A stretch of 63,845 bases of DNA, filler included, from Collodictyon triciliatum (Eukaryota), in the NCBI GenBank assembly GCA_043381765.1. It is 7 parts of 7 records of this genome, joined end to end, with 100 filler letters (N's around TTAATTAATTAA, not from the genome) between each part and the next. Parts side by side here need not be neighbours in the genome. Positions count along the whole stretch, not along the records: positions 40,526 to 53,902 come from JBHJMP010001995.1; 6 more parts are not named here. The stretch is one strand, 5' to 3'. Below are positions 24,001 through 53,902 of this stretch, in pieces. The position numbers were made by a program, and so were the translations under genes. The first letter of the stretch is position 1. Every line of letters starts with the position of its first letter. Under the pieces are notes generated by a model that had not been told where the DNA came from, did no database searches, and was given only the letters and a program-made list of their open reading frames with translations.

Positions 24001-26340
24001 TGGAATTAAATGTACCAGCAGGACATGAATCACACTGAATTGTCCTTGTTCTGTTACTATAATATCCTAAATTGCATGGGAAACATTGTTTTTCTCCATT
24101 TTTATCGGTATAAAATCCTTTAGGACATTCGATACATTGATTTTGACCAACGGCGCCATTGAATGTACCCGCCGGGCATTCTGTACAGTTAGAGCTTTTC
24201 GTAGATGGATTGAATGTTCCAGCTGGACAACCTGTGCAAACATTTGCTCCTGAATGACTATAAAACCCAGCCAAGCAATTATAGCACGTTGTCTGCCTTT
24301 TAAAGTTATTGAAAGTACCAGGTTCACATTTCATGCATATCCCTTGACCGATTACAGCGTTATATGTTCCTTCTTCACAAGATATACATTCATCTATACT
24401 GATAGAACCTGGTTTTGGATTGTATGTTCCAACAGGACATGAAACGCATGTATATTGATCGTAAGCGCTGTTGTATGTGCCTGGGGGACAAAGTTGACAT
24501 GATTTCGAAGTTGTGTTAAAGAAATACCCAACTATGCACAGTTGATAAACTAACCATACTTTAAGGCTAGAATCTGCACTTCCAGAAATTATTCTAGAAC
24601 TATCTGGTGTTATAGTTATTGCTGTAACGCTTTCGCTATGACCTATGATGTTACGAATAAAGGATCCATCAGAAAGATTCCATATTTTGATGATTCTGTC
24701 GCTGCTTCCAGATACAATCTTCGACCCATCAGGTGTAATTGAAACGCTATTAATCCTGCCTGAATGTTGTGTAAGTGTCACTATCAGATGCCCATTAATT
24801 AAGTCCCATACTCTAACAGTATTATCCCCAGCACCAGATACTATTTTCGACCCATCAGGAGATACAGATACTGTTAACACGGTGCTTGTGTGTCCTACAT
24901 ATGATTTTTGCAGTGTTCCATCAGATATTCTCCATAGTTCCACGTTTTTATTACTCCCACCGGATATAACCTTTGAACCATCAGGTGTTACAACAACTGA
25001 GTATGAAGGACTTCTTCCGTGAACAATAAATGACCGAATAAGAGTTCCATATGATAAGTCCCATATGAATAAAACCTTTTCAGCCCCTCCGACAATAATT
25101 TTAGAGCTATCAGGAGTTACTGCCAAGGTATAGATCCACCCATTTCCAGAAATACGTCGTATTTGTGTACCCATCCTTATGTCCCATATAATCACAATTC
25201 CATCTCCACTTCCTGACACGACATATAATCCATCAGGTGTCACTGTTGCTCTTACACCGAAGCCGGAATGTCCGACTAATGAACGGATGAAGTTTCCATT
25301 TGAAATATTGTAGATGGGTACTTGAAATCCGTAGTCACCAACAATTATTTTAGATGAATCCACAGATACTGTTACGGTATTAGGGCTCTTTACAACGCTT
25401 GGTATCGTCATAATCAAACTTGTACTATACTCCCACACTTTAATAGTCATGTCTGAGCTACCTGAGATAAACTTAAGTCCATCAAAGCTAGTTGTGAGAC
25501 TATTAATCCATCCATTATGTCCAGTAATCGATGATATCAATATCCCGTTTGAAATATCCCAAACTTTAATAGTCTTGTCAGCACTACCAGAAAAGACTCT
25601 CACATCTCCAGGGGATATAAATACACTTATCACCACATCATTGTGTCCCAATATTGTCAAGGTTAGGCTCCAATTAGAGACACTCCAAACTTTTATTGTT
25701 TTGTCGTAACTGGAGGAAACTATTTTAGAGCCATCATGAGTAACGTCTAGGGAAGTAACATAGTTCGTGTGTCCCAAGAGAGTTTTTAAATGAGAGCCAT
25801 CGTGTAACCGCCACACTTTAATTGATCTATCATTACTTCCAGATATAGCCAACGAATTATCAGGTGTGACGACGACGGCATTTACAGTACCTGTGTGTGC
25901 AGGTATTGTTCTGAGAATACCTCCATCAACAAAATTCCAAAACCGTACAGTATTATCAGATCCTCCAGAAATAATTTTCATCCCATCTGGAGAGACATCT
26001 ACACAATTTACAGTACTAGTATGTCCGGTCAGTGTTTGTGTCCAAGAGTCATCATGCAAGCTCCAAATTTTAATTGTCTTATCAGAGCTAGCAGATATAA
26101 TCTTAGAATCATCAGGAGAAATAGTAACTTCTTGGATGCTTCCGGAATGGCCCGTCAATGTGCGGCATAAGGTGAAGTTTGAGTAATACCAAACTTTGAT
26201 GGTTCTATCCGTGCTTGCAGACACAAGATACATACCATCTAAGCTGACAACGATACTGTTAATGACATCGCTATGTCCATTTAGGGTATTCGTAAGAATT
26301 TGTGCGTTGAGCTTCGACAGCAGGGATAAAACAAAGGCAC
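18098..26340 (-). CDS. Giant cell-surface protein: 14 WD40 repeats + long CxxC (GCC2/GCC3, ephrin-receptor-like) repeat stalk + multipass TM domain
   Basis: 2711-aa ORF. The frame extends upstream of the listed Met through a first WD repeat (TLNGHSDVINSIVVSLDG) and a hydrophobic stretch (AFVLSLLSKLNAQ) to an AG acceptor at 26341. C-terminal hydrophobic helices carry LxxDxSIDC, GY...WExV...K and QPF motifs. Confidence 0.9.
20090..23760 (-). repeat. Intragenic tandem array of 13 x 279-nt units (93 aa, five CxxC pairs each)
   Basis: The anchor CCAAGTRCCTTG recurs at 20162, 20441, 20720, 20999 ... 23231, 23510, a spacing of 279 nt. Confidence 0.93.
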
Positions 26341-26860
26341 CTATTATAATTAAGTTTTATCTCTAAATTTACTTATGAGCAGTAAACTCAAAATAATTCA
26401 AAACATTCCCTCTTGCAATAAATTTTCTATTTTATTACTTTTTTTTGTCCATATAATTAGATGATATGACCTTGAATGTTTCATTCCAAATAAAAATGTC
26501 GCTAGAATTGGTTTAACTCACTTATTATAACGCTGATCCACTTCACAGAATGGAGCATCATCATAAATTCCTAGAAAATTAGAATAAAACCGCTTTTAGA
26601 GCGATCTTCGGCTGAAAATATACCGCTAAATAGTATAGGTTCGATGAAAATTGGTAAATGGAAAAGACTAGGGGTAATAGCACATATATTATACGAATAA
26701 ATGAGGAGAAAGATTGTCTATCAAAGGGACTAACTTTAAGTTAACTTCACTATATCATCAAATTAAAAGCACCAATTTAAAAGCAATAAAAGCTTCCTTA
26801 TGTTTTTAAGCCATATTATCCCAAAATTACGGGAGAAAGTGACAACACCCCTCCCCAGAA

Positions 26861-26940
26861 CAAAAAGAAAAGAAAAGAAAAGAAAAGAAAAGAAAAGAAA
26901 AGAAAAGAAAAGAAAAGAAAAGAAAAGAAAAGAAAAGAAA
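26861..26940 (+). repeat. (AAAAG)n at contig end
   Basis: Directly visible. Confidence 0.95.
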
Positions 26941-27040
26941 NNNNNNNNNNNNNNNNNNNNNNNNNNNNNNNNNNNNNNNNNNNNTTAATTAATTAANNNN
27001 NNNNNNNNNNNNNNNNNNNNNNNNNNNNNNNNNNNNNNNN
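26941..27040. other. Artificial contig linker
   Basis: N44-TTAATTAATTAA-N44. Confidence 0.97.
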
Positions 27041-27137
27041 TTGTTTTTGTTTTTGTTTTTGTTTTTGTTTTTGTTTTTGTTTTTGTTTTTGTTTTTGTTT
27101 TTGTTTTTGTTTTTGTTTTTGTTTTTGTTTTTGTTTT
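27041..27137 (+). repeat. (GTTTTT)n at contig start
   Basis: Directly visible. Confidence 0.95.
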
Positions 27138-27139
27138 AG

Positions 27140-27345
27140 ACCCTTCAACCAAGCGCCCTGGTTTCTTTTCAAACTCTCCCAGCGACTCGAAGCTGGCCAT
27201 GCGTCATCATCTCCTGAAGCCATCAGAAACTGCGGTGCGGAAATCATCAACGACGACACAGATACGCGCGATAGAAACTTATCGTTATGGCCGTGCCGCA
27301 CTGTCCTCACTTGCCGAAAAACACAAAATCTTACCACGAGCATAA
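27140..27345 (+). CDS. Possible terminal exon of an unidentified gene
   Basis: A T-rich tract plus TAG acceptor is followed by a GC-richer open frame PSTKRPGFF...EKHKILPRA*. No recognisable homology. Confidence 0.35.
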
Positions 27346-27832: not shown

Positions 27833-30206
27833 ATGGAGAGCTCCTCAACTGTTCGAGAGGTGGATGTTGCCATAATAGGAGGTGGAATATCCGGGCTCTG
27901 TGCTGCGCGCGACCTAGTTGCGGGAGGAATTACCAACGTTTTGGGTCGCTCTGTCTTTGAATTATTCTTCTCTCTCATCCACAAAGAAACTGGTCTTCCT
28001 AATCATACACCATATCACAATACCGAAGCGGCCACCTCGACTGATTTTCTTCTATGAAATTGAATAGTTTTTGAGGCCCGAGATCGTGTTGGCGGAAGAA
28101 CATATTCCACACAAGTTGGCAAGGTACAAGTCATACATGCACCATTCTATGATTTCACTCTGGGTGGTTTCCTCACTCACTTACAGGAACTCGACCTTAT
28201 TCAAGGCTGTTGTCGATCTTGGAGGGCAATGGCTTGGTGTTGGCCAAAGTAGGATGCTGGAGCTGGCGAAGGAGTTTGGTATTGAACTTCACCAACAGTA
28301 TGAGACTGGAAGGAAGGTTCTTATCATACTCTGCATTTTTTATGTTGAATATCCTGTATTGATATTGACTTTGAAATCGAACACCTTCCTGCTTTCCATG
28401 ACACAATGAACTCTGCTTCTTTTTTCTGTATTTATTTTCTGTATTTTTCACCAGAACGTCTTTGATACGTCTAGTATGCTTGATTCATCCGATAAATCTC
28501 TTTGCCCAGATAATTGATTTCGATGGGCGCATGTCTTCTTATGATTCGAACATCCCTAGCATGGGTGTGTTCAATCTAATTGACGTCCAATTGATGATTC
28601 AAAAGGTTTTCATTTTTTTTTAATAAAAAACAAAAACAAAAAAAAACATCTTTAGATGGACTACGTATCTTCAAGTCATATTTTTAGCTCAGAAAAAAGG
28701 AGCATAAATGGACATTTAGGACATTATGTATGGCTCTTGATTTACCTATAGAGTAAAATTTTAGGTCGAAAGCATGGCGCAAACAGTACCGAAAGACAAT
28801 CCTATGGGAGCGCCAAATGCAAAGGTTTTGATATTTTATCTTTTAACAAAATTCAGACTTTTTCAAAAAAGAACTCAAAAAGGAATGTAAATCAACTATT
28901 CTATAACTTTAGGAGCTTGATTCAACAAGTGTTGAGACATTTCTCAATCAGTGTTGGACAAATGGTGCCAAGTTGTTATGCAGAGGTTCTTTTTTAAAAA
29001 ATTTTTGTGTATTTTTATTTTTATTTATTTTCGCCTGTACAGCCATACATTTGCTGCATTTGAGATTAATCAAGTTATTCTTCACAGCTGCCGTTCAGGC
29101 TGTTTTCGGGACTGAGCCAAGGGATATAAGCGCACTTTATTTCTTATGGTACATTTCCTGCTCTGGCACGTTCGAGTCCTTGATTACTATCCGAAACGGG
29201 CACCAACAGTGGTAGGTCTTCTAATGATGGATATCGGGGTTCTTTTTTCTTTTTTAATATATGAGTAATTGAATATATAACAATTTTTAAGTGAAAATTT
29301 TACATATGGAGGACTTAATCGCACCGATTCTGGCACCTCATAAATAGCCCACTGATGAGTTTAACACACAGGACGATGAAAGGAGGCGCACAACAAATAT
29401 CCCAGAAACTTGCAGAGTGTGTTGGCAAAGAGCGTGTCCTTTTTTCTCACGAGCTGGAGCGGGTGGATTTGCAAGAATCTGGGGTTGGAGCTCTATTGAA
29501 ATTCTCAAACGGAGTTGTTGTGAACGCAAAGAGAGTTGTGTTTGGTATTGGACCTGCCATTCTGTCGCGTATCCAACGCGGTCCCAAGGTTTTTTCTGTG
29601 GCCAAAGAGCAACTGCAGCAACGCAAGTTCATGGGCTCCATCATCAAAACTCTGGCAATATATGACAAACCCTACTGGCGCGAAAAAGGTTTCTCTGGTG
29701 AGGTAGTTGGTGACGCGTGTGCAACCAGCGGGCCAGGGTTTAATGCTTTTGATGATAGCTTACCCATTCTGGTAGGTAATACCGAGGGACAATCGGCATT
29801 AGCAAACAGTTTCTCGTCTAGCGAACTGCAGCCTGCTATTGTCGTCTTCATTAATGGTCAAGTTGCCCGTGAGTCAAGCGACTTACAAACATTCGAAGAT
29901 CGACGAGCTGCGATTATCAAGCAGTTGGTTCGCTGGTTTGGACCCGAAATGAATAATCCTGTAACTTATGTTGAACAAGATTGGGTCCGCGACCCATATG
30001 CACGAGGCTGTCCGGTAGGATGCTGGCCAACAGGTTTGCTGGCGGCTCATGGGTACGCCCTGAGAAAGCCCGAGAGATTTTTCCATTACGCTGGAACTGA
30101 AACAGCGACAGCTTACCAAGGCTTCATGGAGGGTGCTGTCGAGGCAGGACGCCGTGCAGCCAAAGAGATATTGGACATGAAATTCGATCTCTCGAAATCA
30201 CTATAG
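27833..30206 (+). CDS. Flavin-containing monoamine oxidase family protein (8 exons)
   Basis: DVAIIGGGISGL FAD fold, FEARDRVGGRT, VDLGGQWLG, EPRDISALYFLWYI, MKGGAQQIS, MGSIIK, and YAGTETAT...GFMEGAVEAGRRAA. Confidence 0.95.
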
Positions 30207-40525: not shown

Positions 40526-40622
40526 TTTTTATTTTATCTTTTTTATTTTATCTTTTTTATTTTATCTTTTTTATTTTATCTTTTTTATTTTATCTTTTTT
40601 ATTTTATCTTTTTTATTTTATC
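40526..40622 (+). repeat. (TTTTTTATTTTATC)n at contig start
   Basis: Directly visible. Confidence 0.9.
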
Positions 40623-40683
40623 TTGTATCTTGTATTTTTTATTTTATTGATTTATTGCTGAAAGAGTGAATTAAATCCGCTAG

Positions 40684-40987
40684 AGCGGAGACGACAGAGC
40701 TGAGCCGAGGTATTAAAAAATGCCTGCAAAAGAAACCCGCCCCTGAAGATCGCACCCGACACGAGAAGCTGGGCTCTCAGTTCAACGTTGTCCTCCGAGA
40801 CTTTGAGGCGGTTTCTTCGGATTCATTGGTGAAGGAGAAAGAGTTATTCCACGACCAAGGTATCGTTTGTTTATGAGCACTCAATTGCCAACATTTCAAC
40901 AATACACTATTCCATCTTAATCACCATTTGATTTATTTGATGTTATCTATGTGCATAATCTTTCTCTTTATCTTTGGTGCAATCTTC

Positions 40988-41063
<76 letters not shown>

Positions 41064-41642
41064 GAAAAGACTATATTGTGCAAACCCCCAACATTCTCGT
41101 ATTTAGAGACGGGACGAAGCCACACAGATGACTCTGGAGCGCAGCTCCTTGTGCAAGCGAAAGGCTCCACACAAATCACGGCTGACGATGTCTTATTGAA
41201 GCAGGAGCAAGAGCGAGAGATTCAGCGCCTTGAATCAGACTTAGTGGCGCTTCACGAGTGCTTCTTGGATATGAAGGCATTGGTTGATGTGCAGCAGGAG
41301 TCCATTGATGTCATCGAGGGCAACATAGCGCAGGTGGTCGTCTCGACCCAGGAGGCCAACAAAGAGCTGACCAAGGTTGCCCTCCCAGCTTTGCTTTACA
41401 CCACTTTTTTTTTTTTATTTTTTTTTTTTTTTTTTTACCTTTATTCGATTCAAAGAGCTTTGAATTATGTCATAAAATATTCACCCTGCAACGCTTTTTA
41501 AACCCCACCATAACGGATGATAACTTTACCACAGGCCAGCGACTACCAGAAGAGCAGCAGGAAAAAGATGTGTTGCCTGATGATCGCGATTTTAATTATA
41601 GGCGCCATCATCCTGGTTGTCTTTCTCACAAAAAAGAAATAA
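40684..41642 (+). CDS. Qa-SNARE syntaxin, STX7/STX12(Pep12)-like, 5' partial
   Basis: Habc helix HEKLGSQFNVVLRDFE; SNARE motif EREREIQRLESDLVALHECFLDMKALVDVQQESIDVIEGNI; ASDYQKSSRKKMCC followed by a TM helix and stop at 41640-41642. Confidence 0.9.
40988..41064 (+). repeat. (TTG)n microsatellite in a syntaxin intron
   Basis: Directly visible. Confidence 0.95.
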
Positions 41643-42016
41643 GCAGCCTTTTGCCCTCCCCTCCTTAACAACTTTTTCTTTTTCCTTTTTTCTCCTCTTT
41701 TCTATTTTTTCCTCATTCTTATTCGCTCACCACGCATCTGAGGTTAAAGTGATGATTCTACTTACATCACTGCCATCGTCATAAACTCAAACACCAGACC
41801 CTTCTTTTTTTTTCTTTTTTTCTTTTTTTTTATGGGTGTTGCCTTACTTGATTTGTGAATCCGTTGAAGAGATATATATGCCAAAGTAAAGCAACAGACC
41901 GACTCCACAAAAACCAATCGAATCAATCCGAAACACTCGGCCGACAGAACACATCAACTTTCGCCTGCTCACTTGTCCGCAACCTTTTTTCACTAAGCTC
42001 AGCGATTGTTGGCAGA

Positions 42017-45000
42017 ATGGAAGGTGATCAATGCATTCTGCTTCGACACATTGTCAGTGCCGCCAGAGAAGCTCAACCGGATCACAGCGAGACCGGGCTC
42101 TGGACGCTCACCTGGGCTCTGCAGGATCTGAATGGAACCAAGACAAGAAACCAGTGCAATGACTCTATCCAAGAGCAAAGCTTCGAATGGACAGTCACAT
42201 GTGTGAACGAGGCTACTCGATCAATGCTTGACCCTTCACATCTGCTTATTGAAATCCCTCTTCCTCCAATGCTGCACAACTCATTCGAGTCAGTCGCCCA
42301 CTGGCTCGAGAAGATCGCCTCGAACTCCATCCTCCTCATTACTGCAAGAAGGCTCTCTACTGAAGAAGCTAGCAAACCAGAATGTGTCCAGCCACCTACC
42401 CACGGATATCATCTAATGAAGCGTGAATATGGTCGTTTGTGTCGAAGGGAGTACATACAAGGATTGCGTGGTGGCGGTGCCGTCTGCTCAAGTCCAAAGA
42501 AAGCTCTCATCCATACGCCAGAGGCCATCCCATTATCACGACCTGCTTCTCTATACACAGAACCGCAATCACAAGCTGCAGAATCGAAGCAATTCCATAC
42601 TTCACTCTTATCTGAGCATGACAACTCTGGGAGCAATCACGCCGACGTGCAACAAAGCAAAAGTGTCCGGGTCGAGAAAGAAGTGGAGAGCACCGTGCCC
42701 AAGCGAGATAAAATGATCCCAAAGACCATTGAACGAAAAGAAAAAGACACTGGTCCAGCTACAGAGGACTTTGAAGTTGCAAAAGATTCGGAGCCATCTT
42801 TTGTGCAGTCAGATATGGAGAAGCCGCCTGTTCCTGATCCTGGAGTTCCTACAGTGGCTTTATCGTCCACCCAAAAAATGCAACAGACACCAGGGAAAAT
42901 TGACCGACTCTTTCATGAAAACCCTCCGTTTGCAGTTCCCACCCCAACGCAGGTTGACCAGTCTTGTCGTGATCTCAGTATTCGCATACTTCGGTCCCAC
43001 CTATCCCAAAACACACTGCCTTTACTGTCCCATGTAAATCAGGACGTCGATGCGAAGGACACCTCCTTCTCTACAACATCGTCAAACTCTTTGTTGTACA
43101 AACCCTTAGAGGATGCAGGAATAGTGCAAGCTACAAACATTCCTTTGGATGAATCTAATCGCCATAAAAGTTTCATTTCGAGTGCTGCACATACCCAAAC
43201 TAGCAGTATATCCGCTATTGTTCAAGCTAAGCGTGTATTTGATGCTTTCTTGAGTCGAAATCCTAAAACAAAGGATGATTACGATGAAGTCAGCACTTTG
43301 GCAATAGCCAACCACTCTGAAATTACTCGTGCATTGCTTCGCTGGATGCTAACAACTCCGGACACCAGTTTCGGTATCGTCCCCATGGAAGGAACAAACG
43401 AGCTCACAAGGACATTTAAAGGAATGGACTCTAGAATCGATATAGAAATGAATGCAGATGACGATTACGATGTTAATATTGAAATGGCATGGAAGATTAA
43501 AGCTGTGGGCTACATTATGTGGCATTGTGCCCCAGAGTTTATCGACGAAAAATTTTGGATTGCAGCATACCAACTTCTGCAAAAATATGTCCACCTATTG
43601 TACAGAAAGCTAGTCACACCAGAAGACCGTTCACTGTTTGTCCAGGGCACATCCCGTGTTCTAATGGCTCTATATTCCTCATCTTCCCTTCCTGGTGTGT
43701 GGCAAAATCGGAGCGGACAAGAGTCAGTCAGTCCGAACTCAGAACATTTGACCCAATTACTGGATGTGCTTTCCAAGGACCGTACTCAACCAGAGGTTTA
43801 CGCTTGGGCATCTGTGGCGAGAGATACTCTAATGCGCATTATAGCAGAACTTCATCAACCCCGACATGCCGGCCCAATTTCGATTCAAGTTGGACAGTTC
43901 AGCTCAACAACATTGAATGAGCGCGATTCATCAAGTATGCACGCAAAGTCAAAGACAGAAAGCAACGCTGACGTAAACCCAGACATTGGAGTGGGTGCAG
44001 CCATGGGTGTTGGCAGCATTCATAGGCCCATTGCGTGTGTTAGTGCAGTGAATATGGATTCAACAGCCCATCTCGTCCCTCACGTGGGCCTCGCTTTAGC
44101 AGGGAGAATGCCTACCTTTAGTACCATCAAAACATCCCAATCCAATAGCAATCCCAACCAAGTGTCAATCGAGGGTGCAAATAAATCATTTCGAATGACT
44201 CTCAGTTCCATACTTCAGTCAGTATTGCCCTTATCGTTGGGCCTTACACCTTTGGAAATGCCTCCTCCTTCAGGAACTGGTATGAATATTTTAAACGCAT
44301 ACAATCAGTACTCCGAAAGAGCTCGGTACATAAGCGATGCGAGCTCTTCAAACGTACCTTCTAGTAACTTCCCCAGTGTTGCTGCTCAACCCAAGATGGC
44401 ACAAATAAATGAAAATGGCTCTCAAAGGACACCAATCTACTGGCTAGACCAAATACTGATGGTGTATGTTCTCATACAATGCAATCTTTTTAGGGAGTTG
44501 GAGGAATTTCTTGAGCGAGAGGACACAAATAGAATGTCACAACCCTTTGCCTGTCATATTGTATTGGCCTTATGCGAGGTTGCTGTTCATCACGATGACC
44601 CTCTCACAAGAATTTCATGCATTCGCATGATTGGGGAAATGTATATGGACCCAAATGATATATGGAACACCCAAATATTATTCAAAGAGCTTATATTCAC
44701 CAGACTTATTCGACTGTCTCGCTCGAATGACCCCATAGTACACTTCAATGCGAGAACCCAACTTCACACAATCCATGCACGAATGGCATCTCACGCTCGA
44801 ACTCGCGATTTGTTCGACAAGCATCTCGATGGAAGGCTTGATGAGTTCCTTCCCCTAACAGCATTAACCCACCATGTCTCCCCAAATTCAGATTCATCTG
44901 ATCCAATCAACCCGTCACAAGGCCTATCCCTGACAGGTCCTTATAAACTGTACAATCCGGCTCGTGCAGACGGATTCTTTCCGACATCTCTATTCCGAAT

Positions 45001-48000
45001 GGCCTTATCATCCAATTCTTCAATTCCTGATATTCTGCAGCTTATACAAACCAGTGTGCTACATTCACCTCAGCTAAGAGATCGCCTTCAATCCTTTATA
45101 TCTCCACTTTGTCTAGTCCAACCAGGTGTTTCGTCCCAATCTGGATCTCCCTCGGGGTTTTCTTCAGATCCTCATACATACATAGATGCGACTACGTTTG
45201 TTCAAAATTTCCTACAGAACCAAAATCATAGGACGTTGGTTGTATTTGGGCAGCCGGGTGTTGGGAAATCGTCCTTTCTTTTACATATTCTCAGGCAGTT
45301 ATGGGCAGGCTGGAATGATGAAAATCCAATTCCAATTTATATTCCTCTCCAGACATTGTCTCGTCCAGATACTCATGCTATTGAGGAGGCTCTTACAAGC
45401 GTTTTCAAAAATGGAATTCCTCCACTACAACAGCACATATTTCCTTTTCTTAATCCCCATGTATACGGTCAATCATCACAATCCCAAAACGCCACCAATC
45501 AAGAATATTCGCTTGCCTTCTCAGACGAACAAGCCGAAAGAATGCGCCGAGAAAGGAATTTTGTTTTTCTTTTCGATGGTTATGACGAAATATGTGGAAA
45601 CATTTCTACTGTTCACTCAGCTATGTCAAATATCATGCATTCTATTAACACAGCAGTTACAAATCCAGCCCGCAAGGCCAGTATAAAAAATATCAATCTA
45701 TATGTTTCCAACAGGATGCAACTATGGAAAGCAAAGTGTATTTTCACATGCTCAACGATATCACCCGTACCTAATGTTTCTCTACTTAAATTGTTTGCAC
45801 CTTATTCCAATGGATCGCCATCATTTCATAGTATTCAATCGATTCATTTGATGCATTTTGAGGACAAACAGGTGACCAAGTACCTGTCTGATTATAGTCA
45901 AATAAATCCTCGCGATGAATATGAATCTCCCGATGTTTATTGGAAATATTTGAACAAAATTCCACTCATGAAAAAATACAGTAGATTCCCATTCGACTTG
46001 TTTGTTTTTACATCATCGTTGCCACATGTTCTGCTCAAATCGAGAATCTTACAAGACAACCCGTATCCTAACTTGTGTAGGTCAGATTTCTACGATTCAT
46101 TTACACAAAGCTGGTACGAGGACTATGAAGAAAAAATAATGCAAAATCCTAACTCGAATTATCCAACCAATCTTATGAATCGTTTGGATCAATACCATAA
46201 ATTATTGGCTACTATGTGCTATCTCAAGGGTACCAATACCATATCGATTGACTCTAGTATAATTGGGTTACAAAAGAAAAAAATAGACCTTCAGAGAACC
46301 ACAAAGAAGAGAACCTCCAATATCGGTAACTCGATGAATCCACCCATTGGTGCTTCTCCAGCTATGCTGCAGATGTTATATCATGCCCCTACAGGCAATT
46401 CTTTTTCCATCAAAAAGGGAAACATGTATTCTCCAAGTTTGAATATGGAGGAGTCTCTCAACACAAAAGCAAATAGCCTGGAGGACTTTGATTCATTCTT
46501 TTCAGAGGTCGAGCCTATTCGCACTTTATCACAAGGGGCAATGGTGCGCCGGATAGGCCAATGTCATTATGAATTCATTCACCTTTCTATACGGGACTAT
46601 TTTTTTGCAAAAAATATTTATGATTCTATCATGGGAAAGTCAGGATCTGCTCTAGACTTGTTCATGTCCGATCAAAATATTGCTACCTTTGACGCTGAAA
46701 TGATGTCCCAATTAGAAAAGCAAACTGTCCACGCAAGAGAATACCTGGCGTCATCCCTATCTAAAACAATCATCGCATTCCTGGCAGACCGCGCAAAGAA
46801 TGATTCATTATTCTGTGAAAAGTTGTATGAATATATAGATAGGAGTAGAAAGCTTGTAGAATTATCTGCCTTGGCTTCAAACTGTATCACAATATTGAAT
46901 TTTGCTGAGGTTTCGTTTTCTTCAAAGAATTTGCGTGGTATTTCCATCCCATACGCAGATTTGAGCGGTGCAATTTTAGATAATATTGACTTCAGCGAGG
47001 CAGACCTTAGGGGAGTCCAAATGACTGATAGCTTCGTTAGGGATTGCAACTTTACTAATTCGCTGATGGATAAGATAGAGTTTGGGAAGTACCCACTCTT
47101 CCCTCATGATGAGGAAATTAAGTGTATGGGATACTGGCATAACAACGGCTTGTCCTACTTGGTTTCCTCCAGTGGAGACAACTTATTCATCTGGGACTTG
47201 CACTTATTTCAATTGTACCAGATTATACCAGTTCAGCTTGAGAAGGTTTCTTGCATGGACATTCTAAGTCCTGTCAATGAATCAGGTGCAGATCGCAACA
47301 TTCCACTGTGTATTATAGGTACTGCTTATGGTATCATATCGATTTGGAATCTTTTGAACGGCGATCTCGTGAGAGAGTGGAATGGCCATAATAGCAAGAT
47401 AACAACTATCAGGTTTATAGAGCCTTCCAATCCATCCAGTTACTTTGTCACTGCTGACGAAAATGGATGTATTATTATGTGGGATAAATCAAGAGGAGCT
47501 CAAATTTGGAAAATTGAGCATGCGCATACAAAAAGAATTACGGATATGGACATACATGTGCCGCATTCAGGTCTTCCTTTACTTGTTAGTACTGGGTTGG
47601 ATTTATGTATATGCTTCTGGGATATTGCACGCGGGTCGCTCTATAAAAGCATTCGGGGAATGGCATCTAGTCCTTTGTCGATTATGTGCATTCCCCAGGC
47701 AGAGAAAGAACCTTGGTTAGTTGTTGGATGCAGAGACGGAAAAATAAGGGTCTATGACTGGGTTACAGGTTTGATGCTGGGTGACTGGGAGAGTGGATCC
47801 AGTCATGTTATTCGATTGTGCTGGTGGAAAGACCCATTTAGTGATGATGTCCTCGTAGGAAGTAGCCAATTAGACTATGGCATTCACATTTGGAATTGGA
47901 AAGCAAAGTCACTAATCAGAGCATATGAAGGCCACCAAAATGTTGTGACTGGTTTAGTGCCGATAATACCTCAGAAAGGAAACCCTATACTAGCTTCTTG

Positions 48001-51000
48001 TAGTAAAGATTGCACAATTCAGCTTTGGAAAATTGAGTATCTCTCAATGAGTATCCCTCCCCAAATGAACTCTCGTCCATCAAAGAATATACACTGCATT
48101 GAAATTTGCAATCTCGTCAACGACGTCACCGTGGTTGCCTGTGGTGATGACCAAGGCGTTATTCATATATATGAGCTGTCCAACGGACGAGAGCTTCAAA
48201 AACTTGTTGGACATACAGGCCCTGTCAGGTCGATATCCCGAGTTTTATCTAGCTATTCTGACTTTGCTCTTGCTTCTGCTGGAGAAGATGGAAATATTAT
48301 TGTGTGGGATTTACAAACAGAGTATGAAGATCGTATGCAAAGCAGTGTCTTGACATCAAAAATAGCAAAGACATTACCTCATTTGGTTTCCAATAGTGCT
48401 CCATTAAATCAAGGTCCTGTGGCTTCAACCACTGATACATATTCCCACCTACCCAAACAAAATGATGGATTGCAAATAATAGATAAAGATTTCGAAAATA
48501 GTTTGCAAGCTCCTTTGGTAGAGAGGAAAACAAACTTAAACACAGAAAGTAATGAAGACGTTTATGTGAGCCCTAAACTTCAACAGGTTGGCAGAATTAT
48601 CAAGCAGACATCAACAAAATCGCCCATTATTTGTACGTGCGTTATCAACCAAAGCCCATCAGTGAGATATCTAGTATCAGGGGGTAAAGATTGTCTTGTT
48701 AAGGTTTGGGACATGGACAATCTCAGCCTGGTTATGGAGCTTGAAGGACATTCTGGGGTTATTGAATCAGTACAGGGAAGTCGTTTAAATGAAGATGTCA
48801 CCCTCCTGGTCTCAACCAGCTCATCTGGTGCTGTTCTCATATGGGATACTAGGGAATGGGAACTTGTAGAGAACTACAAAAAGCATGAATCACCCGTACA
48901 TGCGCTATCAATAGTCTCACCAGATGCTTCTCATAACTTTAAGAAACATTCAATGGGTTCCAATGACGAGGAAAGTGATGAAGAGGAGAATTTACGTCCA
49001 AACACACAAAAAGGAAATATCAGTGGGACGAATGGAAATCAAGAGGGCGACACAAGTCCAACTAATCGTAAAGCTGGACTACAAGATAATATCGATGAGA
49101 GTGAATCTAACCTTCCAAAACACTCAGTTTTGACATGCTCAAATGATGGGCAGATAAGATTGTGGAGTTTGAGAACTATGAAGGATTGGAAAATTATAGC
49201 TGGTCATTTCCAAGGGACGTTTTGTGTTTGCGGATACTACCCAAAACAAAATAGCTCGAATGCTTTGGATAAGCTGTCTAAAGTATCTGAGGAAGACAAA
49301 TTTACTGCCGGCTACAGAAAGGCCTCTAATGAATATGACTGGGAATGGCTATTATCTGGTGGAGGAGATGGAATGATACGCATATGGAATGTCAAACATA
49401 ATCAAGAAGGAAAATGGGTCAGGGCACACAGCGGTGTTGTACTCTCTCTTTGCGTATCAGAAGATGGTAAGTATGTAATCAGCGGTGGCTCTGATGGTGC
49501 CCTGAAAGTATGGAAAGTGAAATTCTGCAAAGAGAGTGCTTTACTGCATGGCTTTCAGTATTCCAAATATGATCGCGATATAAGTAGCCAGTCTGAATGT
49601 GCATCTCATGATTCTAACTATATCGGTGGGAATAAGGAAAATACTACAGGAAAGAAGGAATTTGAACAGAATTACCCTGTGGCAAACCGTTGTCAATCTG
49701 ATGAGGCAAGTATAGATAGTAGAAGCACACAAAGTAAATCCAAGGAAAGTATGCAAAGAGGGAAACTAGATAAGGATTTTGATCCAGGGCATCAAAGCAT
49801 GAGCGTTGTTGAGAGCAGCAGGGCTAGCCAAGATTTAATGAGAAATAGAAATACGCAGGAAAATAGCAGACCAAAGTGTGACAATAGTCACAAGCTACAG
49901 ATGGAACTGGAGCTAGTGTGGACATCAAAAGACATTCTTATTGTGGACGGGAGTCTTACGGTAGGAGCAAAAGGTTTGACAAGCGCTAATGGGCATCTTT
50001 TGGAGCAGTCTACCTATGTTGCCAGAATAATTCGACAACCCCAAGCTATTGCTCGCGTTGTTATGGATGCTAAATGCAGCTGTCCAGATGCACTGACTGC
50101 TCTTGGGATTCGTTATTGGTATGGAGACATGAATGGAGATCTTCCAAATCCTACCGCTGCGGCTCCTCATTTCTTGTCAGCCGCCCAATTAGATAATCCT
50201 GAGGCTATGGTTTATCTTGCCAAGTACATTCTATACAATCAAAGCGCTCATTTGAAAAGTACTAATATTGCAAGCGGCATCAGCAAATCACCTATGAAAA
50301 TCATGGTTGACCCCGGTACCCCACGGATGCAGGCAGAATTATCCACATCCATCTCTTCGTCCACCTCGAATGTTACATTTAAGTCGAATTTTACCAACGG
50401 CGCCATATCAGTGGAAACCATGTTATCTTCGGAGCCTCGGGCCCGTGCCATGTACTGGCTGCGCAGGGCTGCTACAGTGCATCGTGACCCAGAAGCTATG
50501 GTTTTACTCGGTCTTTGTATCGAGTCATACGGGGAGGAAGATCCGTCACATATACAAAATGCAGCTCATATTCAGTCCCAATCAATGGATGGTACCGGAA
50601 AGTCCTCCAAGTTTAGTCATTTGATGAATCATGCTCACAACTCGCAATCAAGTCTTGGTGTGATTTCTAGGAAAGATAGCGCTTCTGTAGACACAGCTGT
50701 CTTGAAATCTTCCTCTACCGCACCCAGTAATGTAAATAGCAGTGAAGATATGACGTCTGATGTGGAGGATATGTCCTTTTTACCATCCTTTGCACCTCAA
50801 ACGTTAGAAACCAATCCTAATGAGTCTATAGCAGACCAGGTGGCTGATAACATGCCTGTCTCCACAACAAACACAAACTCTGGACCTTCGTCAGGGCACA
50901 ACTCGAAAAAAAATTACTTGGCTTTTGATTGGTACAGAAAAGCTGCTGAGCTTGGGCATGCCCATGGTTGCTTCAAGCTTGGATATGCCTTTTGGAGTGG

Positions 51001-52096
51001 GATGGGTCTGCCCAACAACCGTCGGGATTTGGAACAGTCTGTTGATTGGTATGTTCGCGCAGCATCCCAAGGTCACAGCATGGCCCAGTATAATTTAGCA
51101 TGTGCTATTCGCGATGGTATAGCGGTCTCAGCCTCTCAAGCCACGTTGGCCATTGGGCGAAATTTGTTATTGAAGATAGGTGGTGATGAAAATCTTACTT
51201 CAAATGTCGGAAATGCTCTGCCTCAACATGCCATTCAACTTTTAGCAAAGTCATCACAAAAGGGGAATCCGTATGCCCTGTCCACCTTGGGTAAATGTTA
51301 CGAAAATGGCTGGGGCGTTGCTGTTGATTACAACATGGCCATATATTGTTACCGGCGAGCTCTCAGGTATTCAGCATATTCGATTAATTTGAGCGAAACA
51401 GGTTCACTTTGGTTCGACTCTGCCCCCAAAAATGACAACGACTTTGGTAAAATGGATATGTTGGTCGCAGACAAGATGAAACTCCTCAAACTGCAAGAGG
51501 GTGACCTTTTGTTTTCGAAGGGTTCTGTTGATTTTATTCAATGTGATTCGTTGAAAGCAGAGCATGTGGTCGCTTTGTACAATCTTGGGATGTGCTTTAA
51601 AACCGGAAGGGGAGTGGAAAAGGATATACGCGCAAGCGCTGGGTGTTTTTCTTATGCTGGGGTGTTTATGCATGCAGATGCGCTGTTTAATCTGGCGATT
51701 TACCATCAAAACGGCCTGTTAGACGAGGGTGAAAATCTTGCACAACAATCTCATCCTCAGGATGGAGACGCTATCAAGCAGGGAGGTAGAGAACGAGCTT
51801 TACGGTTATTCCGTGCATCTGCACAACTGGGCAATGTCTCTGCTATTAGCAACATCGGGGTTTTCTTTGAAAATGGGTGGGTAGTCAAAAAGGATTTCGA
51901 AAAGGCTGCAAAGTACTATAGAGCAGCCGCTGATAGAGGCTCAGCTCCTGGTATGTGCAACTTGGCAGACTTGCTGGAGTATGGGCGAGGAGTTCGTCGT
52001 GATTTGGAGGAAGCTAAGCGCCTCTACTCGCGTGCTGCTCGTCTTGGTAATCCGGTGGCTGTTCGCGCACTCAAACGCATTGGAATGATTTCTTAA
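42017..52096 (+). CDS. Intronless NLR-like STAND protein: LRGG-containing N-terminus, helical region, NACHT NTPase, pentapeptide repeats, WD40 repeats, Sel1-like repeats
   Basis: About 10 kb uninterrupted ORF, first ATG at 42017. Walker A GQPGVGKS (45248-45271), Walker B FVFLFDGYDEI (approx. 45560-45592), winged-helix YEFIHLSIRDYFFAK, pentapeptide YADLSGAILDNIDFSEADLRGV, GH...WD repeats, and Sel1 motifs such as AFDWYRKAAELGHAHG and KAAKYYRAAADRG. Confidence 0.93.
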   Translation: MEGDQCILLRHIVSAAREAQPDHSETGLWTLTWALQDLNGTKTRNQCNDSIQEQSFEWTVTCVNEATRSMLDPSHLLIEIPLPPMLHNSFESVAHWLEKIASNSILLITARRLSTEEASKPECVQPPTHGYHLMKREYGRLCRREYIQGLRGGGAVCSSPKKALIHTPEAIPLSRPASLYTEPQSQAAESKQFHTSLLSEHDNSGSNHADVQQSKSVRVEKEVESTVPKRDKMIPKTIERKEKDTGPATEDFEVAKDSEPSFVQSDMEKPPVPDPGVPTVALSSTQKMQQTPGKIDRLFHENPPFAVPTPTQVDQSCRDLSIRILRSHLSQNTLPLLSHVNQDVDAKDTSFSTTSSNSLLYKPLEDAGIVQATNIPLDESNRHKSFISSAAHTQTSSISAIVQAKRVFDAFLSRNPKTKDDYDEVSTLAIANHSEITRALLRWMLTTPDTSFGIVPMEGTNELTRTFKGMDSRIDIEMNADDDYDVNIEMAWKIKAVGYIMWHCAPEFIDEKFWIAAYQLLQKYVHLLYRKLVTPEDRSLFVQGTSRVLMALYSSSSLPGVWQNRSGQESVSPNSEHLTQLLDVLSKDRTQPEVYAWASVARDTLMRIIAELHQPRHAGPISIQVGQFSSTTLNERDSSSMHAKSKTESNADVNPDIGVGAAMGVGSIHRPIACVSAVNMDSTAHLVPHVGLALAGRMPTFSTIKTSQSNSNPNQVSIEGANKSFRMTLSSILQSVLPLSLGLTPLEMPPPSGTGMNILNAYNQYSERARYISDASSSNVPSSNFPSVAAQPKMAQINENGSQRTPIYWLDQILMVYVLIQCNLFRELEEFLEREDTNRMSQPFACHIVLALCEVAVHHDDPLTRISCIRMIGEMYMDPNDIWNTQILFKELIFTRLIRLSRSNDPIVHFNARTQLHTIHARMASHARTRDLFDKHLDGRLDEFLPLTALTHHVSPNSDSSDPINPSQGLSLTGPYKLYNPARADGFFPTSLFRMALSSNSSIPDILQLIQTSVLHSPQLRDRLQSFISPLCLVQPGVSSQSGSPSGFSSDPHTYIDATTFVQNFLQNQNHRTLVVFGQPGVGKSSFLLHILRQLWAGWNDENPIPIYIPLQTLSRPDTHAIEEALTSVFKNGIPPLQQHIFPFLNPHVYGQSSQSQNATNQEYSLAFSDEQAERMRRERNFVFLFDGYDEICGNISTVHSAMSNIMHSINTAVTNPARKASIKNINLYVSNRMQLWKAKCIFTCSTISPVPNVSLLKLFAPYSNGSPSFHSIQSIHLMHFEDKQVTKYLSDYSQINPRDEYESPDVYWKYLNKIPLMKKYSRFPFDLFVFTSSLPHVLLKSRILQDNPYPNLCRSDFYDSFTQSWYEDYEEKIMQNPNSNYPTNLMNRLDQYHKLLATMCYLKGTNTISIDSSIIGLQKKKIDLQRTTKKRTSNIGNSMNPPIGASPAMLQMLYHAPTGNSFSIKKGNMYSPSLNMEESLNTKANSLEDFDSFFSEVEPIRTLSQGAMVRRIGQCHYEFIHLSIRDYFFAKNIYDSIMGKSGSALDLFMSDQNIATFDAEMMSQLEKQTVHAREYLASSLSKTIIAFLADRAKNDSLFCEKLYEYIDRSRKLVELSALASNCITILNFAEVSFSSKNLRGISIPYADLSGAILDNIDFSEADLRGVQMTDSFVRDCNFTNSLMDKIEFGKYPLFPHDEEIKCMGYWHNNGLSYLVSSSGDNLFIWDLHLFQLYQIIPVQLEKVSCMDILSPVNESGADRNIPLCIIGTAYGIISIWNLLNGDLVREWNGHNSKITTIRFIEPSNPSSYFVTADENGCIIMWDKSRGAQIWKIEHAHTKRITDMDIHVPHSGLPLLVSTGLDLCICFWDIARGSLYKSIRGMASSPLSIMCIPQAEKEPWLVVGCRDGKIRVYDWVTGLMLGDWESGSSHVIRLCWWKDPFSDDVLVGSSQLDYGIHIWNWKAKSLIRAYEGHQNVVTGLVPIIPQKGNPILASCSKDCTIQLWKIEYLSMSIPPQMNSRPSKNIHCIEICNLVNDVTVVACGDDQGVIHIYELSNGRELQKLVGHTGPVRSISRVLSSYSDFALASAGEDGNIIVWDLQTEYEDRMQSSVLTSKIAKTLPHLVSNSAPLNQGPVASTTDTYSHLPKQNDGLQIIDKDFENSLQAPLVERKTNLNTESNEDVYVSPKLQQVGRIIKQTSTKSPIICTCVINQSPSVRYLVSGGKDCLVKVWDMDNLSLVMELEGHSGVIESVQGSRLNEDVTLLVSTSSSGAVLIWDTREWELVENYKKHESPVHALSIVSPDASHNFKKHSMGSNDEESDEEENLRPNTQKGNISGTNGNQEGDTSPTNRKAGLQDNIDESESNLPKHSVLTCSNDGQIRLWSLRTMKDWKIIAGHFQGTFCVCGYYPKQNSSNALDKLSKVSEEDKFTAGYRKASNEYDWEWLLSGGGDGMIRIWNVKHNQEGKWVRAHSGVVLSLCVSEDGKYVISGGSDGALKVWKVKFCKESALLHGFQYSKYDRDISSQSECASHDSNYIGGNKENTTGKKEFEQNYPVANRCQSDEASIDSRSTQSKSKESMQRGKLDKDFDPGHQSMSVVESSRASQDLMRNRNTQENSRPKCDNSHKLQMELELVWTSKDILIVDGSLTVGAKGLTSANGHLLEQSTYVARIIRQPQAIARVVMDAKCSCPDALTALGIRYWYGDMNGDLPNPTAAAPHFLSAAQLDNPEAMVYLAKYILYNQSAHLKSTNIASGISKSPMKIMVDPGTPRMQAELSTSISSSTSNVTFKSNFTNGAISVETMLSSEPRARAMYWLRRAATVHRDPEAMVLLGLCIESYGEEDPSHIQNAAHIQSQSMDGTGKSSKFSHLMNHAHNSQSSLGVISRKDSASVDTAVLKSSSTAPSNVNSSEDMTSDVEDMSFLPSFAPQTLETNPNESIADQVADNMPVSTTNTNSGPSSGHNSKKNYLAFDWYRKAAELGHAHGCFKLGYAFWSGMGLPNNRRDLEQSVDWYVRAASQGHSMAQYNLACAIRDGIAVSASQATLAIGRNLLLKIGGDENLTSNVGNALPQHAIQLLAKSSQKGNPYALSTLGKCYENGWGVAVDYNMAIYCYRRALRYSAYSINLSETGSLWFDSAPKNDNDFGKMDMLVADKMKLLKLQEGDLLFSKGSVDFIQCDSLKAEHVVALYNLGMCFKTGRGVEKDIRASAGCFSYAGVFMHADALFNLAIYHQNGLLDEGENLAQQSHPQDGDAIKQGGRERALRLFRASAQLGNVSAISNIGVFFENGWVVKKDFEKAAKYYRAAADRGSAPGMCNLADLLEYGRGVRRDLEEAKRLYSRAARLGNPVAVRALKRIGMIS

Positions 52097-52266
52097 CATA
52101 TTTGCTTTCACCTGTTTCTTTCATTTCATTTTATATTAAAAAAAAAAAAAACAAGCTTTTGTTAAAAAGAAATAATTCACCCCATCGACTATTTCAATAA
52201 ACCACATCATTAAATGTTTCCATTAAATAACACATATTTATGTTATGCTTCTTTTGGTTTCTTTTG

Positions 52267-52380
52267 TTTCTTTTGGTTTTTCTGGTTTTTCTGGTTTTTC
52301 TGGTTTTTCTGGTTTTTCTGGTTTTTCTGGTTTTTCTGGTTTTTCTGGTTTTTCTGGTTTTTCTGGTTTTTCTGGTTTTT
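52267..52380 (+). repeat. (TTTTTCTGG)n tandem repeat
   Basis: Directly visible. Confidence 0.93.
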
Positions 52381-52537
52381 TGTTTTTTACGTATTATTCT
52401 TGGTCAGCGTATCCCTTTTTATTAGATGTAAAATAATATCATGTGGCTTTGCCCTCAGCTTGAGGCGCAGAAATTACTAATGAAATTTCATTTTGCTGGT
52501 GCTGTGACTTTTGGTATTTATTTTTTCATAAAATAAA

Positions 52538-53538
52538 TCATTCTTCCGCCCGTTTATGTAATCGAACAGTATCTGTGCGTTTCCTTAGGTAAAAACCAAT
52601 TCCAAGACCAAGTATGATAAATCCTGCCACAAACAATGATACAAATATTCCTTGGCTGGTGTCCCAAGAAGCATCCAATACATTCTGCCTAGCACCATCA
52701 GCGTTCTGTGCACTTGGGGCATATGTATAATTTGATAATCCCAAAGAACCATTGAATCGAACTGCCTCTGCTTGTGTGGATTCGTGTGGTGGTAGAATAA
52801 CATGCCGAGGGGTAGCTGGGCTTTTGCGGTCGTAGACTTTCAACGCTTTGTATGCAAAAACCAAGGCTTTGTTCTGCGGTGCGCATCGTCCTTCATGAAA
52901 ACAAACATTCAAATAAACACGCGTGTTCTCCTTGTCAAATGGATACGGGAGTGCTGGAGAGATACAGATGATTTCGTTCAGATCGATGCTAATAGGGGGC
53001 ACTCGCACATTCCCAAACTTGCAGTCATACCGAAAAGACTCTAGGAAAACACCTCCGTTGATGGTCACCACAGTCCCTCCGGTGCTTATCCCTTTAGTGG
53101 GCTTTGCACTACGCAGGATAAGTGTATTTCCTCGCATAGTCTGTCTTGTTTCTAATGCAAGTACATTGGATATCATTTTAATTCTAACCAACCCAATAGA
53201 GGGGTCAGCAATATATAAACCCCGGCTTCGATCTTTTCATAGTTGCTAAGGTTTGGTACTCAAACAGTTGAAAGTTATTAAAAGATATGTAAAATAATTG
53301 GTTTTCATCTTTTTGGTTCTTGGAGTAAAACATGGAGTAAATATACGATAATTGTGTGTTCGACCGACTCCAGGTTTTCCTCGAGAAGGAATAAGAGCAG
53401 GGTCTAAGTCCCCTTTGTTAATCTCACGGACGTGATCTAGATTTTGATCTGACGGGTTCATCCGCTCAGGTGTTTCCTTAGAGTGTTTTTTTACATGGTG
53501 GCCAAAGTAAGGTCGAGTACCTTCTTTGTGAACTATAC
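52538..53538 (-). CDS. Single-pass membrane protein with IPT/TIG domain, 5' partial
   Basis: PTKGISTGGTVVTINGGVF...CKFG...IICISP matches the IPT/TIG pattern; C-terminal TM GIFVSLFVAGFIILGLGIGFYL followed by RKR. An upstream exon (approx. 53538-53365) joins in frame via an AAG acceptor. Confidence 0.8.
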
Positions 53539-53803
53539 CTCGTTTTAATTCTAGATGTGCCTTACTCGCGATACTAGTCTTTTCCTGAACACTCTGATCT
53601 GGGCGATTAAATGCTGCATTATGGAATCATGGTATTTTACTAATCTTATACTTTTGAGTTCAATCCATTGATTTGTAAACGAAAAGACACACTGGATACA
53701 AATAAGCAAAAAAGGAAAAAAAGGTTTGCTTTCTAATTTGTCCTGTTCAATTAGATAAAAGCGTATGTTACTAAGCAGTATCATTATATTTTGAAATAAT
53801 GTG

Positions 53804-53902
53804 TTTTTATCATCGTTTTTTATCATCGTTTTTTATCATCGTTTTTTATCATCGTTTTTTATCATCGTTTTTTATCATCGTTTTTTATCATCGTTTTTTA
53901 TC
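53804..53902 (+). repeat. (TTTTTTATCATCG)n at contig end
   Basis: Directly visible. Confidence 0.93.

Follow-up and report, generated by a model that had tools for sequence, protein, structure and literature searches.

Locus and domain architecture of the NACHT protein

The window analyzed in this study is a stretch of 63,845 nucleotides from the freshwater protist Collodictyon triciliatum (GenBank assembly GCA_043381765.1), of which positions 40,526 to 53,902 come from record JBHJMP010001995.1. At 42017 to 52096 (stop codon included), the plus strand carries an intronless open reading frame (ORF) whose product of 3359 amino acids, P0001, is a STAND protein of the order NACHT-pentapeptide-WD40-Sel1, as assigned by translation from the first ATG and by Pfam. 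The subject of this report is a 13-residue island near the N terminus of P0001, in which the tetrapeptide LRGG is followed directly by a third glycine and a sequence resembling a lipidation site; the island is shared with the only credible relative of P0001 and is probably a functional short linear motif. The window is eukaryotic in character, with AT-rich spacers and, in the gene next to the NACHT gene, a GT..AG intron confirmed by RNA contigs. It contains genes of the WD40/Ephrin-receptor-like and protein-kinase types, and tRNA genes were not found.

The NACHT NTPase core of P0001 comprises residues 1072 to 1198 (45230 to 45610; this and all following features of the gene are on the plus strand) and matches PF05729 with an E value of 8.6e-10 and 39.1 bits, above the cut-off of 26.7. 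The Walker A motif GQPGVGKS is located at residues 1078 to 1085, and an acidic Walker B-like motif, FLFDGYDE, is located at residues 1184 to 1191. The core is preceded by a helical region (residues 799 to 1040; 44411 to 45136), which is the first stretch of P0001 with clear homology to the relative P0002 (residues 437 to 640), and is followed by pentapeptide repeats (residues 1647 to 1681; 46955 to 47059; Pfam, E = 3e-08) and two regions of WD40 β-propellers (residues 1714 to 2526; 47156 to 49594; PF00400, E = 1.5e-41). In the C-terminal Sel1-repeat region (50102 to 52093; Pfam, E = 7.4e-41), the best Pfam stretch is residues 3311 to 3345, and the first Sel1-like unit was placed by eye near residue 2696. 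With its NACHT domain, Walker motifs, and C-terminal repeats, P0001 belongs to the NACHT-type STAND NTPase (NLR-like) class. The label "NLR-like," already given to the protein in a preliminary description of this DNA, is fair because the NACHT match, the Walker A motif, and the pentapeptide, WD40, and Sel1 repeats are all present in P0001.

In the N-terminal part of the protein, the first 153 residues (42017 to 42475) form a putative pro-domain of no known family, which ends in LRGG and cannot be aligned with the 172-residue pro-domain of P0002. The LRGG itself (residues 150 to 153; 42464 to 42475), proposed to be P4 to P1 of a cleavage site, recurs as the same tetrapeptide at residues 169 to 172 of P0002. 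The adjoining GAVCSSPKK (residues 154 to 162; 42476 to 42502), whose counterpart in P0002 is GCGVSSQRK, is the proposed new N terminus. Behind it, residues ~163 to 400 (42503 to 43216) are a linker that is, by composition, of low complexity and rich in Ser, Pro, Lys, and Thr. Residues 154 to 420 contain 13.5% Ser and 8.6% Pro, and the polar, disorder-promoting fraction in 40-residue windows over residues 161 to 360 is 0.57 to 0.75, which bears out the long low-complexity linker of the preliminary description. The length of this linker behind the motif is ~250 residues in P0001 versus ~30 in P0002.

A conserved LRGG-Gly island

Bases 42461 to 42502 encode Gly149-LRGG-GAVCSSPKK162 of P0001, in the context ...REYIQG-LRGG-GAVCSSPKKALIH..., exactly as had been described (IQG-LRGG-GAVCSSPKK about 150 residues after the first Met). 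LRGG is the C-terminal tetrapeptide of ubiquitin, NEDD8, and ISG15. In a six-frame scan of the window, three matches of the L[RK]GG type were found, of which only this one lies in a long open frame; the frames of the other two are closed within 29 and 86 codons. Taken alone, the LRGG of P0001 is not above chance, being one tetrapeptide in 3359 residues.

When residues 1 to 1070 of P0001 were compared with 1,835,955,588 representative proteins, two matches were obtained at E ≤ 1e-3. The only credible relative is P0002 (EP00002_Diphylleia_rotans_P040774), a protein of 2197 amino acids from Diphylleia rotans, which aligns with P0001 by BLASTP (1e-85) from residue 799 of P0001 and residue 437 of P0002 onward, through the NACHT, pentapeptide, and WD40 regions, and which also has a precomputed PF05729 match. 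The other, P0003 (E = 3.1e-4), has a repetitive sequence and a match confined to the low-complexity linker (residues 331 to 387), and on inspection of its sequence it was set aside as spurious.

P0002 reads ...WRLEFSFFS-LRGG-GCGVSSQRK..., with LRGGGCGVSSQRK at residues 169 to 181. Both proteins keep, in a single register, the LRGG and the Gly behind it, serines at +5 and +6, a pair of basic residues, and a Cys close by, which shifts from +4 in P0001 to +2 in P0002. The distance from the N terminus is also similar (residue 150 versus residue 169). Loss of the motif from homologues had been named beforehand as the finding that would count against its importance; it is kept in the single homologue that could be detected.

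Judged from the sequence comparison, the match in P0002 raises the LRGG motif above chance. The pattern set down beforehand in the preliminary description, L[RK]GG-G-x-x-x-S, has a composition-based expectation of 5e-4 occurrences for the whole of P0002 and 1.5e-4 for its 660 N-terminal residues, and it arose in none of 200,000 shuffles of the 660 residues before the P-loop. With no motif preset, the best ungapped 13-mer between residues 1 to 798 of P0001 and residues 1 to 436 of P0002 is LRGGGAVCSSPKK against LRGGGCGVSSQRK, with a score of 37 that was reached by 6 of 300 shuffles. The sole 5-mer common to both N-terminal regions is LRGGG. The pro-domains before the motif (149 versus 168 residues) are dissimilar, with a global alignment z of 1.65 (24 of 300 shuffles as good) and a local alignment z of 0.92 (57 of 300). 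Because the flanks have diverged and LRGGG is the only 5-mer in common, the island appears to be under a constraint of its own.

PROSITE-type patterns of N-myristoylation further ask for a small uncharged residue at P2' and no Pro at P6'. After a cut behind the Gly-Gly, P0001 would present Gly at P1', Ala at P2', Cys at P4', Ser at P5' and P6', and Lys at P8' and P9'. Counted in the same way, both proteins have Gly at position 1, Ala or Cys at 2, Ser at 5, Ser (not Pro) at 6, and basic residues at 8 and 9, with one Cys at 2 or 4; positions 1 to 15 are free of acidic residues. Such N termini resemble the SH4-type dual-acylation N termini of Src-family kinases. The acylation consensus used for comparison, taken from PMC2708883, was a Gly at P1', a Ser at P5', and a Cys in the vicinity. 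GAVCSSPKK and GCGVSSQRK both provide the substrate context for myristoylation and palmitoylation, and the G-x-x-x-S with nearby Cys and Lys pointed out in the preliminary description thus holds for P0002 as well as P0001. A cut at LR|GG would place Val at position 5, and moving the cut one or two residues ahead of GG| brings Val or Cys there instead of Ser. Since these earlier cuts lose the Ser at position 5, GG|G is the cut that agrees with the conserved register.

As far as the two sequences tell, conservation spans both the LRGG half and the acylation half, although neither of them would by itself require the other. The 13-residue island L-R-G-G-G-[AC]-[VG]-[CV]-S-S-x-[KR]-K is probably a conserved functional short linear motif, because the only known relative carries the same motif. 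It marks the boundary between an N-terminal pro-domain of ~150 to 170 residues, which evolves fast, and the NACHT-pentapeptide-WD40 body.

Transcript and start codon

The N-terminal region of the gene is covered by RNA. In run X1, a contig of 1073 nt (record 4) aligns without gaps to 42004 to 43036, and therefore the pro-domain, the motif, and the linker are on one RNA. Run X2 covers 42233 to 42481, and the motif is unchanged in both runs. X1 also bridges the 159-nt GT..AG intron of the neighboring gene (41374 to 41532), i.e., it is a cDNA-like run; the oligonucleotide-like loose ends of its contigs are presumably SMART-type template-switch or cDNA adapter sequence. Among 18 variant rows from the RNA comparison, 14 are in the ORF (8 synonymous and 6 not), and none falls within 42461 to 42502. 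Between 41000 and 45000, the X1 contigs differ from the window mainly by T>C (9 of 15 changes by kind), which may represent strain variation.

In the X1 contig, position 42004 is preceded by a leader of 25 nt, of which no copy exists anywhere in the 63.8-kb window even when up to three mismatches are allowed. As a control, the upstream exon of the neighboring gene was located in the window, at 40828 to 40857, by the same approach. The coding exon of the NACHT gene extends 14 nt in front of the ATG, where it is joined to a remote 5' exon or to a trans-spliced leader, because the leader is absent from the window and a pyrimidine tract and an acceptor cag (42000 to 42002) stand before 42003. Positions 42003 to 42016, directly after this 3' splice acceptor, are accordingly the part of the 5' untranslated region that belongs to the coding exon, as supported by the X1 contig together with the pyrimidine tract and the cag. 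No paper on Diphylleia together with a spliced leader was found in the literature search. The 25 leader letters and the 13 exon letters contain neither an ATG nor an in-frame stop, and since no ATG precedes it there, 42017 is the first AUG seen. A translation start downstream of the motif, which had been considered as an objection, finds no support in this unbroken contig.

Other features of the window

The gene upstream of the NACHT gene (plus strand, 40828 to 41800) has at least two introns, at 40858 to 41104 (inferred from a loose contig end) and at 41374 to 41532 (GT..AG), and spliced contigs of it are present in runs X1, X2, and X19. At its 3' end (41672 to 41713), ~35 to 40 nt are matched at less than 90% identity by many short contigs of a freshwater metagenome and an RNA run, with unrelated sequence on both sides; this is probably a dispersed low-complexity repeat.

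On the minus strand, an open frame of 2752 codons at 18098 to 26356 encodes an unusual giant protein of membrane type with WD40 and cysteine repeats. The product is hydrophobic at its N-terminal start and along a long C-terminal part of multi-pass appearance; it further contains two WD40 propeller regions and 36 cysteine-rich Ephrin_rec_like repeats (E = 3.9e-257), along with matches of the NCD3G type. Around 26800 to 27150, runs of N are flanked by a (TTTCTT)-like tract (FSFLFF) and a dinucleotide-type tract (KTKTKT/FVFVFV), which looks like an assembly gap at a microsatellite. Several short open frames in 27900 to 30206 on the plus strand, together with the ORF at 29355 to 30206, match flavin amine oxidase (PF01593, E = 1.1e-31) and look like a single gene split by introns.

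Proposed processing of P0001

Tentatively, and with somewhat less than even confidence, we read the island as a protease-exposed dual-acylation site. Endoproteolysis behind the Gly-Gly would remove the pro-domain and uncover Gly154, which would be acylated by N-myristoyltransferase, an enzyme universal in eukaryotes. The neighboring Cys would be S-palmitoylated by palmitoyl-transferases, and the Lys/Arg pair would aid membrane binding. The processed NACHT-WD40 sensor would then be tethered to the membrane through its flexible linker, and a change of localization or activity may follow lipidation. The candidate proteases are a dedicated host enzyme, a papain-like or deubiquitinase (DUB)-type enzyme of a pathogen, or the pro-domain acting in cis.

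Several points weigh against this assignment, and the first of them concern the pro-domain, for which a ubiquitin-like fold of residues 1 to 153 had been raised as a point to check. No Pfam family was found in either pro-domain at E ≤ 10, and no ubiquitin chain was among the PDB matches obtained by phmmer at E ≤ 10; the matches that did appear were to Asf1 (E = 0.66 and 1) and a dehydrogenase (E = 1.6). Most DUBs need a ubiquitin-like fold. In residues 1 to 1100 of P0001, Pfam gave nothing at E ≤ 1 except weak P-loop matches at the end, and the best hit of the pro-domain in the ESM Atlas was a "hypothetical protein" with a score of 0.79, which is below the lead threshold. Single-sequence AlphaFold2 models of the two pro-domains have a mean predicted local distance difference test (pLDDT) of 34.5 and 31.6 and a predicted template modeling (pTM) score of 0.27 and 0.26; none of their 168 and 175 residues, respectively, reaches a pLDDT of 70, and the models are too low in confidence to be interpreted. 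The two pro-domains also do not resemble each other, so that a ubiquitin fold is not supported, no sign of it being present in the sequences. Both proteins do have the feature of a cleavable tail, that is, LRGG/Gly-Gly at the end of the pro-domain and an extension behind it (in P0001, Gly154 is next). Because no ubiquitin body was found, a protease that reads LRGG or LxGG linearly would be likelier than a classical DUB. As for an enzyme within P0001 itself, no protease domain was recognizable among the best 25 of 44 Pfam families or in scans at E ≤ 1 (E ≤ 10 for the pro-domain).

Further points on the same side concern the conservation argument, which covers two sequences (n = 2). BLASTP gives the motif segment an E value of only 0.21 in pairwise space, the weakest of the three measures, and N-myristoylation patterns are permissive and common. 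No additional relatives were found for residues 1 to 500 of P0001 among 3908 candidates of near length, for residues 1 to 330 among 3086 shorter proteins, or for residues 1 to 700 of P0002, which recovered only P0002 itself among 8000 proteins scored. Of the metagenome contigs, 0 of 52 stretches matched residues 1 to 340 of P0001 and 0 of 213 matched the P0001/P0002 alignment (A1). Viral contigs likewise gave 0 of 2 for residues 1 to 340; one of 130 (L001) matched A1 in the pentapeptide repeats only and was set aside. The lineage is poorly sampled, and P0001 has no self-match in the protein libraries searched. The pro-domain, moreover, needs a reason, because a Met-Gly at the true N terminus would be a simpler lipid anchor. 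Finally, a longer N terminus encoded by an unseen exon is possible because the leader has no in-frame stop. The protease-gated lipidation switch put forward in the preliminary description is partly supported: the conserved motif and its register speak for it, and a ubiquitin-like fold of the pro-domain finds no support.

Alternative explanations

Conserved function in a motif that is not cut at all is unlikely, but it is the alternative that survives best. The island could serve as an internal S-palmitoylation or polybasic patch beside a Gly hinge, as a docking site, or as an RGG-type methylation or RNA contact. Conservation by itself is silent on function, a Cys together with Lys/Arg can attach to membranes even where no N-terminal Gly is present, and an uncut motif agrees with the finding of neither a protease nor a ubiquitin fold. 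What it leaves unexplained is the fixed register of the LRGG, its following Gly, and the Ser at +5, when the Cys is free to move between +2 and +4; for the RGG role, a single RGG makes a weak RGG box.

That the island is a ubiquitin-tail bait, by which an NLR-like sensor detects DUB-type or papain-like LxGG proteases of viruses or intracellular bacteria, is a distinctly unlikely specialization of the favored processing. In this version, the cut would remove an inhibitory pro-domain, and lipidation of the exposed Gly and Cys would recruit the NACHT-WD40 machine to a membrane. A bait may stay conserved amid fast-evolving flanks because the pathogen enzyme must retain its specificity for the ubiquitin tail.

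A cut behind LRGG could also have an output other than lipidation, which we regard as a little less probable still. In one form, the new N-terminal Gly would act as an N-degron of a tripwire, with "functional degradation" in the style of NLRP1; in the other, the pro-domain would be released as a ubiquitin-like modifier ending in -LRGG. Ubiquitin, NEDD8, and ISG15 are indeed made as precursors that are cut behind LRGG. The two pro-domains, however, are unrelated to each other and match no hidden Markov model of the ubiquitin family, which is unlike a conjugatable modifier. For the degron form, there is the precedent that a viral protease cuts the NLRP1 tripwire and that ligases act on the new N-terminal glycine, as described in PMC7857732, which also states that NLRP1 sites evolve fast, whereas in P0001 and P0002 the site is the only island that is conserved. 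Neither FIIND nor CARD nor any other death-fold domain was listed for P0001 among the best 25 of 44 Pfam families or in the three-part scan at E ≤ 1, so there would be nothing to release. Neither a degron nor a leaving group would require the conserved Ser5-Ser6, the Cys, and the basic pair.

As a variant of the favored processing, the pro-domain may itself be a small protease cutting in cis at its own C-terminal Gly-Gly, which we consider very improbable. Viral leader papain-like proteases self-cleave at G|G in a comparable manner, and both pro-domains contain Cys and His, including a His 18 to 22 residues before the LRGG. Set against these residues, no Cys/His pair can be aligned between the pro-domains of P0001 and P0002, no protease family was matched in the pro-domain by Pfam at E ≤ 10, and the AlphaFold2 models are uninformative. 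Self-processing of the AvrPphB type, which exposes a P1' Gly and a P5' Ser, is a precedent for this variant (PMC2708883).

Coincidence in both proteins, or a functionless remnant of common descent, is the least probable explanation of all. The motifs are short and permissive, only two sequences carry them, and the BLASTP value and the 13-mer shuffles are modest, but the pattern fixed beforehand has an expectation of 1.5e-4 to 5e-4 and was absent from every shuffle, and its distance from the N terminus is similar in both proteins; a neutral remnant should have decayed because the surrounding sequence is randomized. Some further readings were rejected from the sequence. Processing at a bacterial lipobox or at GG|C in the Hedgehog manner does not fit, since the Cys does not keep its position and a Hint domain is lacking behind it; ribosome skipping of the 2A type would need an NPGP, which is absent; and a metacaspase cut after Arg would put Val at position 5.

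Comparison with known systems

Caspase-dependent post-translational N-myristoylation, e.g., that of BID, proceeds by proteolysis that exposes an internal Gly; modification of this Gly by N-myristoyltransferase then takes the fragment to membranes. These caspase sites are cut after Asp in apoptosis, whereas P0001 has a site of the ubiquitin-tail type in an NLR-like sensor. Among ubiquitin, NEDD8, and ISG15 precursors and ubiquitin-ribosomal fusions, LRGG is directly followed by more residues, as in P0001, and these precursors are cut by deubiquitinating enzymes; unlike them, P0001 and P0002 have before the LRGG 149 to 168 residues that match no ubiquitin-family model or PDB ubiquitin chain.

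AvrPphB, ORF4, and NopT, which are type III effectors of the YopT family, were shown experimentally by Dowen et al. to process themselves and then to be N-myristoylated and S-palmitoylated in a context of P1' Gly, P5' Ser, and a nearby Cys, and the acylated proteins go to the plasma membrane (PMC2708883). The removal of an N-terminal segment, the Gly at P1', the Ser at P5', and the nearby Cys are the likeness proposed for P0001. On the other hand, these effectors are bacterial papain-like proteases that cut themselves, and P0001 is a eukaryotic NACHT-WD40 protein with LRGG at P4 to P1. No papain-like (YopT family) protease domain was matched by Pfam in residues 1 to 153 (E ≤ 10) or 1 to 1100 (E ≤ 1) of P0001.

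In plant coiled-coil NLRs (CNLs; RPS5/PML7, PML5, and others), N-terminal Gly/Cys lipidation is needed for function and membrane location (PMC11467418). Like these, P0001 is of the STAND/NLR type with a putative Gly/Cys lipidation context. In the CNLs, however, the Gly stands next to the initiator Met and its modification is co-translational, whereas the Gly of P0001 lies 153 residues inside and would require a cut first; the CNLs carry NB-ARC and LRR, and P0001 carries NACHT and WD40. With the NLRP1/CARD8 tripwires, as they are described in PMC7857732, P0001 would share an N-terminal protease site as the trigger and a new N-terminal Gly. In NLRP1, autoproteolysis in FIIND and N-degron degradation free a CARD fragment; of these domains none was seen in P0001, and PYD was likewise not found among the best 25 of 44 Pfam families or in the three-part scan.

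On these searches, P0001 cannot be classed with the ubiquitin-like fusions, the NLRP1-type sensors, or the YopT-family proteases, since for each of them a defining feature was looked for and not found. By analogy, the closest working likeness is to the embedded acylation sites of the AvrPphB type and to the caspase-exposed myristoylation sites.

Implications

No paper describing an LRGG-type site before a cryptic myristoylation site was found, as judged by titles and the opening lines of abstracts. If the proposed processing is true, proteolysis of the ubiquitin-tail type, post-proteolytic N-myristoylation and palmitoylation, and NLR/STAND signaling would be joined in one protein, in a barely studied branch of eukaryotes. 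The bait version, if true, would be a protease-gated lipid switch undescribed for any NLR, and if the protease is derived from a pathogen, the system would be a tripwire whose output is lipidation instead of degradation. The island would also provide a searchable signature, L[RK]GG-G-x-x-x-[ST], at ~150 to 170 residues from the N terminus. The proposed processing, if true, would also mean that a protease can gate the attachment of NLR-like proteins to membranes, a step that in plant NLRs takes place co-translationally.

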